This document shows positions 8,187 through 9,767 of a DNA stretch of 39,584 bases, piece after piece. Each line of letters starts with the position of its first letter. Position 1 is the first letter of the stretch. The notes under the pieces are model-generated. The model was not told the DNA's origin, ran no database searches, and saw nothing but the letters and a program-made list of their open reading frames with translations. The position numbers and the translations under genes were made by a program. The DNA is from a virus (taxonomy: Duplodnaviria > Heunggongvirae > Uroviricota > Caudoviricetes): IMG/VR virus record IMGVR_UViG_2585427708_000019. One strand, written 5' to 3'.

Positions 8187-8738
8187 ATGATGAAATTACA
8201 ACCCATGGGGAGAAAAGGCCGTGCACCCGCTCATGTTCGCGCATGGACACCTGAAGAAGATGCGCTGCTGATTGCGCTTTATCCATCCACCCCGGTTAAG
8301 GATATTGCTGTCAGGATAAAAAGAAGTTTCTGGGGTGTACATAACCGGATTGTTTTATTACGCGGTACTTACCCGGAGTTGCTCAAATGCAAACGCCTCA
8401 GATTTAAACCTGATGAAGATAAATTTATCCGAAAAAATGCCAGGACGATGACCGGTAAGCAAATAGGAGAATATCTGGGGCGAGACCGGGATTCTGTCCA
8501 CAATCGGGCGCGATATATTGGCGTAAGCATGAAAAAATACGGAGAATTACTGCCTTTTACCCGCATACCTGACGATGATGTTCATCTTATTCGTGAATTA
8601 CGGGATGCTGAATCACCACGGCGTCTTACCTTTAGGGAAATCGGCGAGAAATTTGAATTATCCGAGGGCACGGTGAGTTTTATTTATCACCGTCGTCGGA
8701 CTGCCGAAGATGTTGTATTACGGGAGTTAACGACATGA
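8187..8738 (+). CDS. Putative DNA-binding protein with three internal Myb/SANT-like repeats
   Basis: 183 aa with three repeats: WTPEEDALLIALY...VHNRI; KPDEDKFIRKNAR...VHNRARYIG; PDDDVHLIRELRD...TVSFIYHRR. Confidence 0.5.
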   Translation: MMKLQPMGRKGRAPAHVRAWTPEEDALLIALYPSTPVKDIAVRIKRSFWGVHNRIVLLRGTYPELLKCKRLRFKPDEDKFIRKNARTMTGKQIGEYLGRDRDSVHNRARYIGVSMKKYGELLPFTRIPDDDVHLIRELRDAESPRRLTFREIGEKFELSEGTVSFIYHRRRTAEDVVLRELTT

Positions 8739-8920
8739 TAAGGAGACTTGTTTTTTTCGCAATTATCGTTCCTGTGTGGGGGGTTGGTTTTATATTTGCG
8801 GTTACAGGAAATCTGTCCATGATGCCGGATATATGGTTCTTTATCAGGATGTCGCTCTTCCTGTTTATTATGAATCTTCTTATCGACATATATATCCGTA
8901 TTACTGGAAAACATAAATGA
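8735..8920 (+). CDS. Small membrane protein (two predicted TM helices)
   Basis: 61 aa, strongly hydrophobic (LVFFAIIVPVWGVGFIFAV; FFIRMSLFLFIMNLLI). AT-rich codons relative to neighbours. Confidence 0.45.
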   Translation: MIRRLVFFAIIVPVWGVGFIFAVTGNLSMMPDIWFFIRMSLFLFIMNLLIDIYIRITGKHK

Positions 8921-9291
8921 GAAAAATCACGACCTTGTCAGAGTTACAGGAGATGAATATGAGTATTGAATTAAGATCGTCTTATGAATATCGTAAAATT
9001 CTCATCGCCGGAGGCATGAAACCGGAAGATGCAGAAAAAATCGTTTCTTTTATGGATAAAGAATGTGACAAACGGGATATGCCAGAAATTATTATGGATG
9101 ACATGATTCTGGATTCAGCCGTGGCGTTAAGTCCGTTATGGATTGTGCATTCTCTTGCTGAAATTGCCAAAGGCACCGATAAACAGGCAGCTGTTGCTGC
9201 CCTTCAGACGCTTAATGAAATGCGTATATCTCCACGCCCGACATTAATACATATGATTCTGTCCAGCATGGAGGATAAAGCAAATGAATAG
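8917..9291 (+). CDS. Hypothetical protein in AT-rich early island
   Basis: 124-aa ORF, translationally coupled, AT-rich. Confidence 0.45.
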   Translation: MRKITTLSELQEMNMSIELRSSYEYRKILIAGGMKPEDAEKIVSFMDKECDKRDMPEIIMDDMILDSAVALSPLWIVHSLAEIAKGTDKQAAVAALQTLNEMRISPRPTLIHMILSSMEDKANE

Positions 9292-9481
9292 TCTACCCGC
9301 TGGATGGGCGCGGCCACTAATGGCCAGGAAGCATCATTTTTTTAAAACAGGCGAAAATATCAGTATATGTGGACGGTGGTTATATCTGGCTCATAATCGC
9401 GAGCCGGATACATTTGAAAGCCCTGATGACTGTGCCGAATGCCGCAGAAGAGTGAATAAGGAGAAAGATAATGGACAATAG
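9284..9481 (+). CDS. Small Cys-containing protein (possible zinc ribbon)
   Basis: 65 aa with ICGRW ... DDCAECRRR cysteine pairs. Confidence 0.4.
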   Translation: MNSLPAGWARPLMARKHHFFKTGENISICGRWLYLAHNREPDTFESPDDCAECRRRVNKEKDNGQ

Positions 9482-9767
9482 TTCTCTGTTGTTCTGGTGC
9501 TTATATATCACATCCTTTTTCGGCGCATTTGTTATTACCCGGTGGTTATGTCGAAAAATCATCTGCTTTTTTGATAAAAGACATCCGGTTGAACGGGCGG
9601 CTGATGCGCTCATTCAGCAGGCCATTGTGTTATATAGCGGTGAGTTTTTCTGCCGGATAACAACCAGAGATGGCTGGCACATAATGATTATTCCACCAAC
9701 ACACCATGCCCGGTGGGATGAGGCAGAAAAGGCTTTCCATGTCCGTAAAAAGGTAAATACGGTATGA
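9471..9767 (+). CDS. Small protein with N-terminal TM helix
   Basis: 98 aa; hydrophobic N-terminus LLFWCLYITSFFGAFVITRWL. Confidence 0.45.
   Translation: MDNSSLLFWCLYITSFFGAFVITRWLCRKIICFFDKRHPVERAADALIQQAIVLYSGEFFCRITTRDGWHIMIIPPTHHARWDEAEKAFHVRKKVNTV

Follow-up and report, generated by a model that had tools for sequence, protein, structure and literature searches.

The functions of the semi-essential genes in the early operon of transposable phage Mu are largely unknown (PMC3820752). After gp11 and gp12, and before gemA and mor, the Mu operon holds gp13 (E14), gp14 (E15), and gp15 (Mu_54). These are small dispensable open reading frames (ORFs) of lower GC content than their neighbors, among them the Cys-rich gp13 and the hydrophobic gp15. 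In this study we analyzed the segment that takes the same place in the same operon of a prophage recorded in IMG/VR (IMGVR_UViG_2585427708_000019). The segment covers positions 8735–9767 of a 39,584-nucleotide stretch, referred to here as the window, and in it four small genes, o61, o110, o65, and o98, lie between o183, encoding a helix-turn-helix (HTH) protein, and gemA (Table 1). The two slots, of three or four ORFs each, are alike in all the features named above. Unlike Mu, the window has an extra gene, the HTH gene o183, before the slot; o98 overlaps gemA, which in Mu is preceded by 105 nt of intergenic sequence containing an annotated promoter; and the four window proteins have no detectable sequence or profile similarity to gp13–15. 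Our results show that the segment consists of real genes in an exchangeable slot of the early operon. Their function beyond that is proposed only, with no homology to any characterized family. We consider it probable that this is a hyperplastic accessory slot of the early (Pe-type) operon, holding dispensable small genes with accessory roles in lytic growth.

Comparable sites are known from other phages. In Mu-like phages of Pseudomonas aeruginosa, small accessory ORFs, some of them anti-CRISPRs, sit at fixed regions of genomic plasticity that are often GC valleys (PMC4378225). Such plasticity regions (Cazares et al., 2014, PMC4378225), the T4 hyperplastic regions cited there, and the lambdoid nin/ea regions are all fixed sites between core genes. 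They hold zero to six small ORFs (34–100 codons), mostly without function in annotation, whose content differs between close relatives and some of which are anti-CRISPRs or help to elude host exclusion systems. The window slot differs from these regions in that it occurs in different phages and encodes unrelated proteins, for which no anti-CRISPR or anti-defense homology was found; o65 is the one element common to the slot and to lambdoid early regions. Morons in the Juhala/Hendrix sense (PMC4378225) are likewise extra DNA of deviant composition between genes that are adjacent in relatives, as is the case for an o110 homologue in phage SfMu. Unlike morons, the block has no promoter or terminator of its own detected in a crude scan, lies on the early strand and is packed into the operon.

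A plastic, AT-rich accessory slot in the early region of transposable phages is already known, and the sequences themselves are in databases as hypothetical proteins and PHROG families. New are the map of the cassettes in this prophage type, a corrected start of the second ORF, the recognition of o65 as a probable zinc-binding family across unrelated phages, and the structure of o98, in which a constant anchor is combined with a swapped domain. Nothing points to a new kind of system; this is ordinary phage accessory cargo.

Gene Content Between o183 and gemA in Closely Related Prophages

The window is a Mu-type transposable prophage of enterohaemorrhagic Escherichia coli (EHEC). Its 8735–9767 block matches, at 100% identity, prophages in the chromosomes of EHEC strains from cattle and humans (O157:H7, O26, O103), and every gene of the block is annotated as "hypothetical protein" in RefSeq. 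As an O157:H7 (ECO57) entry is among the UniRef names of the exact proteins, we termed the prophage Sp18-type, after the Mu-like prophage of strain Sakai; the term serves as a label only. Sp18 is predicted to be intact and its DNA is packaged (PMC2669165).

The block was compared by megablast with 5,426 complete E. coli genomes, and the slots were compared in five E. coli genomes and in 36 IMG/VR loci for which GemA served as anchor; the slot proteins were mapped onto all of them. The prophage backbone (o171 plus o183) was found at 274 places in 232 of the 5426 genomes, i.e., in ~4% of complete E. coli genomes, and o61 at 120 places in 109 genomes, or ~44% of the backbone places. The full four-gene arrangement is common in EHEC prophages, being present at a coverage of at least 80% in 108 of the 5426 genomes.

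Five classes of slot were distinguished. Class 1, the type of the window, carries o61, o110, o65, and o98. In class 2, genes for proteins of 103 and 116 aa are followed by o110, o65, and o98; class 3 holds the 103-aa gene and an o98-like gene; and class 4 has genes for 109 and 116 aa, a truncated o110 and a DUF2513 gene on the reverse strand. Class 5 (8 loci) consists of a 110-aa gene, a Mu gp13 homologue (92% identity), a Mu gp14 homologue (51%), and a 79-aa reverse-strand ORF. Across the classes the flanking gp11, gp12, and GemA homologues are 85–100% identical, and o183, present in all five architectures as two alleles (~95% and ~72% identity), is 72–100% identical. With flanks so nearly identical, the differences in the slot are replacements within one lineage. 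Gene content thus varies at a fixed site between core genes, in the form of small ORFs in a GC valley. An earlier prediction made from the sequence of the window (hereafter the original prediction) had proposed that the position tolerates cargo, and this is borne out by the five gene sets found between o183 and gemA in prophages with 85–100% identical flanking genes. We also looked for the opposite pattern, in which the same ORFs with known housekeeping roles would stand here in all Mu-like phages, and did not find it.

Natural prophages lacking each of the genes, together with frameshifted copies of o61 and o65 in otherwise conserved prophages (L020 4022–4215, L006 3501–3687, proteins P0028–P0030), suggest that the four genes are individually dispensable; o61 is annotated as frameshifted in strain ECP19-798 as well. 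Since the genes are individually replaceable, exist as frameshifted copies and give way to alternative cassettes in near-identical prophages, we regard them as accessory and not as housekeeping genes. The stretch before gemA in Sp18-type prophages (232/5426 genomes) is therefore a cassette-exchange site, of which the alternative cassettes and junctions are mapped here, and classes 1–5 provide natural isogenic-like comparisons for the role of each small gene.

Proposed Role of the Slot Genes

The early strand carries all four genes, tightly packed between o183 and gemA. A crude consensus scan of the block gave 6 promoter-like sites vs. 4.5 ± 2.5 expected and no terminator-like site on the + strand within 8735–9767. 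The Pe transcript of Mu extends from ner across the semi-essential genes (PMC3820752). As no promoter or terminator signal rises above background in the block, the genes probably ride on the early transcript, which would be shut by the repressor in the lysogen. By analogy with Mu, they would be co-transcribed with the early operon on induction or infection and not from the repressed prophage. Their products may then give a conditional advantage in lytic growth through host or competitor targets (host takeover, anti-defense, or exclusion at the membrane) and would not act in transposition or morphogenesis. Recombination swaps the cassettes at gene boundaries among related prophages. The early-transcript position and the occurrence of o65 relatives in strictly lytic phages make a lytic role likelier than defense by the resident prophage. 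Phage accessory genes commonly act against the defenses of the host or against other viruses (bioRxiv 10.1101/2023.04.06.535777).

Tentatively, at least one of the cassettes may be a new effector of anti-defense or inter-phage competition. The best candidates are the o65 family and o98, singled out for the spread of o65 across unrelated phages and for the constant anchor and variable domain of o98. The o65 family (~60 aa), found in temperate Mu-like and lambdoid phages as well as in strictly lytic Pbunaviruses, could target a conserved host defense or a core host machine, and the invariant anchor of o98 with its allele-swapped cytoplasmic domain could be the signature expected of an arms-race specificity module. 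If the genes do encode host-takeover or anti-defense factors, they would be additions to the catalog of small phage effectors; otherwise they are ordinary accessory cargo.

The o65 protein carries the paired cysteines announced in the original prediction, C50-x2-C53, to which C29 and H17/H18 are added, all conserved in the family. Searches by tblastn matched 325 phage records, 283 of them Pseudomonas phages; the top matches listed are PB1-like Pbunaviruses, and Klebsiella and Pantoea phages were found as well. The genomic setting of the relatives varies. ORF85 of Pbunavirus 14-1 lies inside a block of small hypothetical genes and the Klebsiella phage relative among primase and methyltransferase genes; in IMG/VR, o65 immediately precedes gemA in a different Mu-like lineage and, in lambdoid contigs, adjoins lambda-P-type replication genes or Ead/Ea22 genes. 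Residues G7, W8, S27, C29, P47, D48, C50, and C53 do not vary, and even distant members, down to ~27–41% identity, retain them together with the His of a K-x-H-F/Y-F/Y motif. In the AlphaFold2 model (predicted local distance difference test, pLDDT, of 76), short strands are followed by a helix at residues 51–63, directly after C50 of C50-x2-C53. Four conserved Cys/His ligands and a C-x2-C knuckle at the start of a helix, as in a zinc mini-domain, are thus present, as would fit a treble-clef type of zinc knuckle with His-Cys3 ligands in a protein that probably binds zinc. A zinc-stabilized mini-domain may, through its basic helix, bind nucleic acid or a conserved host protein. Small zinc-finger regulators of phages, such as Mu Com and P2 Ogr/Delta, are likewise ~60–70 aa long with four ligand candidates and a basic helix; o65 differs from them in its ligand pattern, H-x10-C-x20-C-x2-C, resembles no solved zinc finger in sequence or, to a significant degree, in fold, and is not known to be connected with late or mom regulation. 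The best folds in the PDB, chain H of an H/ACA snoRNP and a PHD finger, were not significant (expectation value, E, of 1.8–4; template modeling score 0.24), and a Pfam scan of distant o65 relatives gave nothing meaningful. Frameshifted o65 variants were seen to form clusters of their own with several member sequences.

Two membrane proteins had been predicted among the four, and hydropathy agrees. The o61 protein has two hydrophobic stretches (maximum 19-aa Kyte-Doolittle score 2.62), and o98 has one, its anchor at residues 5–27 (nt 9483–9551; score 1.82 at residues 5–23). In o98 an acidic N-terminus precedes the anchor, and a K/R-rich stretch and a basic C-terminal domain of ~70 aa follow it. 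An exhaustive HMMER scan with o98 over 1.84 billion representatives returned one other full-length cluster, at 49% identity, the rest being spurious repeat proteins. Two alleles of o98 were found, with 25/27 identical residues in the first 27 and 24/71 in the remainder; DNA identity between them is 33–57% over 9580–9745 and recovers at the gemA start. As read from these sequences, the alleles differ by a domain swap and not by gradual drift. The protein may act as a constant membrane tether that presents a target-specific cytoplasmic domain.

A number of points weigh against the lytic accessory reading. The four proteins had no match in Pfam and NCBIfam scans and none in a PADLOC-DB 2.0 scan at E <= 1, in which the alternative cassettes also remained without a match, and PDB sequence searches returned only noise (E > 0.8). 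The AlphaFold2 model of o110, built on a 19-sequence alignment, shows 7 helices at low confidence (pLDDT 60.8). Fold matches of o65 in BFVD were only to uncharacterized proteins of Pseudomonas, Arthrobacter, and Streptomyces phages; structural relatives of o65 in actinophages are probable. The zinc site of o65 is a prediction, as is the membrane topology of o61 and o98, which was derived from hydropathy only. Co-transcription from the early promoter is extrapolated from Mu and from the lack of signals in the crude consensus scan. Finally, in Mu lysogens low-level transcription from the early promoter takes place and there is a second promoter, Pe* (PMC3820752), so expression of the block in the lysogen is possible. 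A literature search on the four proteins and their families found no publication.

These last data bear on an alternative that we consider rather unlikely, namely that o61 and/or o98 are made in the lysogen and protect it against superinfecting phages by blocking their receptor function or the entry of their DNA, as a form of lysogenic conversion or superinfection exclusion. The predicted inner-membrane location of both proteins fits, as exclusion proteins are typically inner-membrane proteins (T4 Imm, P22 SieA). So does the retention of the o98 anchor with a soluble domain swapped for a 34%-identical allele, as in an arms-race specificity determinant. Besides the transcription known from Mu lysogens, there is a precedent in a Pseudomonas Mu-like phage, Fc02: superinfection exclusion is shown by its gene 10, which follows ner in the lytic (early) operon (PMC9936078). 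However, the slot genes lie deep in a repressor-controlled early operon with no promoter signal above background, and have no similarity to known exclusion or defense proteins. Moreover, the reverse-strand, moron-type ORFs of sister slots (DUF2513, 79 aa) show what independently expressed cargo resembles.

Cassettes and Their Junctions

According to the original prediction, the four ORFs plausibly form a single acquired module. A horizontally acquired set of co-functioning genes, e.g., for membrane-based superinfection exclusion or for defense/anti-defense, would account for their adjacency, common strand, close packing and shared AT-richness, and for the recurrence of the full set in the 108 genomes. 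Yet each gene was found without the others, which makes this explanation very improbable. Classes 2–5 of the same prophage lineage hold subsets or replacements. In class 4 prophages, in SfMu, and in Yersinia phages (the last two having only the o110 homologue), o110 stands without o65, and in classes 2 and 4 it stands without o61. In turn, o65 occurs without o110 in another Mu-like lineage (L062), lambdoid prophages and Pbunaviruses, and o98 without o110 or o65 in class 3. A toxin-antitoxin system or other obligate pair (o61 with o110, or o110 with o65) was rejected on the same ground, as the partners do not always co-occur.

Recombination junctions, too, lie between the genes, and PADLOC gave no match to a known defense set. 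Partial megablast matches break at query positions 212, 727, and 845. Identity with prophages carrying the 103-aa gene ends two codons into o61, and identity breaks ~10 nt ahead of the start of o110 and, likewise, of o98. For the upstream junction of o110, the megablast breakpoint at query 212 corresponds to ~8946 in the window, and identity with classes 2 and 4 is lost upstream of ~8948. Considering the independent gene distributions and the junctions between genes, the block is composed of at least three independently exchanged cassettes: o61 alone, o110 (mostly with o65), and o98. Scans of the region for Rfam families, tRNAs, and repeats found none, and so there is no sign of an RNA element or of att-like repeats at the borders of the cassettes.

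The cassette that replaces o61 (L005 2824–3500) encodes an acidic, Cys-containing protein of 103–110 aa and a charged 116-aa protein that appears by eye to be a coiled coil. The pair takes the place of o61 in classes 2 and 4, and the 103–110-aa gene stands alone in classes 3 and 5; neither protein had a PADLOC match. At the equivalent of window ~9300–9760, sister prophages carry on the reverse strand a 136-aa DUF2513 protein (L008 3785–4195) or a 79-aa ORF (L016 4185–4424), again with no PADLOC match. These two fit the moron definition better than the block does and resemble true morons, possibly expressed apart from the early operon.

Relation to Mu gp13, gp14, and gp15

We give slightly less credence still to the possibility that the four genes have diverged from gp13–15 beyond recognition but serve conserved housekeeping or enhancing functions in replication and transposition of the Mu type, as counterparts of classical semi-essential Mu phenotypes such as arm, sot, lig, and cim. 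Their position, that of Mu gp13–15 between gp12 and gemA, would agree with it, as would purifying selection and the resemblance of o65 to Mu gp13, which is also small and Cys-rich. On the contrary, sister prophages with 85–100% identical flanks carry real gp13 and gp14 homologues in the place of o110, o65, and o98, which indicates replacement and not divergence. BLASTP of the four proteins against Mu gp13, gp14, and gp15 found nothing better than E = 4, and the profile-profile comparison of o110 with gp14 by hhalign gave a probability of 0.2%, on which basis o110 was rejected as a gp14 relative. In addition, frameshifted copies persist in otherwise intact prophages.

Coding Capacity of the Block and the Start of o110

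The original prediction placed four ORFs on the + strand, and these are found at the positions listed in Table 1, with the second read as 8917–9291 (124 aa). Of 8735–9767, 89.6% is occupied on the + strand by ORFs of 60 aa or more. Shuffled sequences gave 11.5% ± 13.9% with a maximum of 79%, and 0 of 2000 reached the observed value. On the minus strand of the block there are four ORFs of at least 60 aa, covering 58%. A Shine-Dalgarno sequence precedes each of the four starts. Pairwise ratios of nonsynonymous to synonymous substitution (dN/dS) against sister prophages were 0.19–0.32 for o61, 0.13–0.34 for o110, 0.08–0.25 for o65, and 0.17–0.18 for o98 within an allele, hence 0.08–0.34 over all four, the same range as in the flanking o183 (0.13–0.14) and gemA (0.14–0.26). 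All four proteins belong to PHROG families (o61, phrog_19804, 7e-5; o110, phrog_1988, 1e-44; o65, phrog_2358, 5e-34; o98, phrog_17269, 2e-32), each annotated "unknown function," so that membership gives no mechanism. The four ORFs are thus real genes under purifying selection. That some or all of them are chance open frames in AT-rich spacer DNA, for which their shortness, their lack of domain matches and the ORFs of the minus strand might speak, can practically be dismissed given the selection on the + frames, the Shine-Dalgarno sequences, the PHROG matches, the shuffling result, and the retention of length and motifs by o110 and o65 homologues at 30–45% identity.

For the second ORF the frame proved correct, whereas the start at 8917 was rejected: translation almost certainly begins at ATG 8959, giving 110 aa. 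An AGGAG lies 6 nt before this codon, RefSeq/PGAP annotates the start there, and all o110 homologues begin with MSIEL. Sister prophages with another upstream cassette lack the ATG at 8917, and their homology with the window begins only ~10 nt ahead of 8959. With the start at 8959, a 38-nt spacer separates the first two ORFs, which are therefore not start/stop-coupled. The description of the ORFs as tightly coupled accordingly fails at this junction and is valid for the others, where overlaps of 4 nt (o183/o61), 8 nt (o110/o65), 11 nt (o65/o98), and 4 nt (o98/gemA) were found. At the last of these, the gemA start overlaps the o98 stop within ATGA.

Base Composition of the Slot

GC content of 8735–9767 is 41.9%, vs. 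48.8% in the early region at 4605–8734, 57.5% in gemA, 57.2% in the late genes and 53.2% in the whole window. Only 1.7% of 1033-bp windows are as low. GC content at third codon positions (GC3) is 0.39–0.47 in the block genes vs. 0.52–0.65 in core early genes. Lower GC than in the flanks, as originally predicted, was therefore found, but not a sharp left edge of an AT-rich island, since the trough begins at ~8300, inside o183 (GC 45.8%, GC3 0.40, with an AT-rich second half), and other small early ORFs are equally AT-rich (4605–4832, 75 aa, 42%; 5629–5949, 106 aa, 43%; no Pfam match for either). Nor is the composition specific to these four ORFs: all five alternative slot fillings have 42–47% GC, and the Mu and SfMu slots 46–47% (Mu slot 46.9%). 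AT-richness is a property of the slot and not of its particular cargo.

The early region as a whole has the appearance of a patchwork in which conserved genes of higher GC alternate with small ORFs of low GC, so further plastic slots are possible.

Further Properties of o61 and o110

The o61 protein is confined to the Sp18-type lineage, its PHROG match being only weak. Relatives of o110 were found only in E. coli, Shigella, and Salmonella prophages and in the SfMu and Yersinia Mu-like phages (34–50% identity). In the last two, the homologue (SfMu_14 in SfMu; 34–36% identity) is an extra gene between gp13 and gp14, which adjoin each other in Mu. The conserved motif of the family is LSPxWI...IA.G.DK.AAVAAL. 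A PDB fold search with o110 gave non-significant matches (VHS, TOG, armadillo, and AlkD-like helical repeats, E > 5), and the "HEAT repeat" label on the database entry of one homologue was for this reason not adopted.

Flanking Genes and Other Parts of the Prophage

Coordinates of the slot genes and of their neighbors are given in Table 1.

Table 1. Features of the slot and its surroundings in the window.
Feature	Position	Strand	Description
Transposase	1515–3605		Early gene
MuB-like ATPase	3676–4608		Early gene
Gam	5961–6491		Early gene
Mu gp11 homologue	7135–7668		67% identity
Mu gp12 homologue	7668–8183		53% identity
o183	8187–8738	+	183-aa HTH protein; conserved left border of the variable slot
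o61	8735–8920	+	61 aa, isoelectric point (pI) 10.9; basic hairpin predicted to cross the inner membrane twice, N-in/C-in according to the positive-inside rule; cassette 1
Spacer	8921–8958		38 nt; recombination junction and Shine-Dalgarno sequence of o110
o110	8959–9291	+	110 aa, pI 4.9; acidic, predicted soluble and all-helical; cassette 2a
o65	9284–9481	+	65 aa; probable His-Cys3 zinc-binding protein with basic C-terminal helix; cassette 2b
o98	9471–9767	+	98 aa; predicted single-pass membrane protein, N-out/C-in; cassette 3
gemA	9764–10273	+	GemA (Mu gp16 family); Pfam GemA 3e-30; 44% identity with Mu GemA; forms the conserved right border of the slot
Terminator-like hairpin	10278–10301	+	9-bp stem, then T-run; first + strand site downstream of the block
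mor	10343–10768		Mor, after GemA; followed by lysozyme

The left border gene, o183, belongs to phrog_323 ("transcriptional regulator, D5-like," 1e-58) and has weak Sigma70_r4/HTH matches in Pfam. Its second half is like Mu gp9/E8 (32% identity), the product of a gene placed elsewhere in the Mu early region. The same family, phrog_323, was also seen in the Klebsiella phage that bears an o65 homologue.

The hairpin located between gemA and mor may be an attenuator of early transcription before the gene of the middle-operon activator. The Mu genes gemA and mor overlap and have no annotated site of this kind between them.

In strain E2865, which carries the same prophage type, the portal (DUF935) and minor head genes are frameshifted pseudogenes in RefSeq (L002 18332–21228). 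Their counterparts in the window are open (15057–16655 and 16639–17964), and copies of the prophage therefore differ in intactness.

In Mu, com and mom follow directly after gin. In the window, ~3.5 kb of cargo lies between a Gin-like invertase (34121–34681) and Mom (38202–38939). It includes two reverse-strand ORFs of 153 and 154 aa (37056–37517 and 37469–37933) in a trough of 38.8% GC, with no Pfam or PADLOC match, and a gene at 34781–36820 for a 679-aa protein with a sialate O-acetylesterase (SASA) domain and DUF6645. The latter protein presumably resembles the NanS-p esterases of EHEC prophages.

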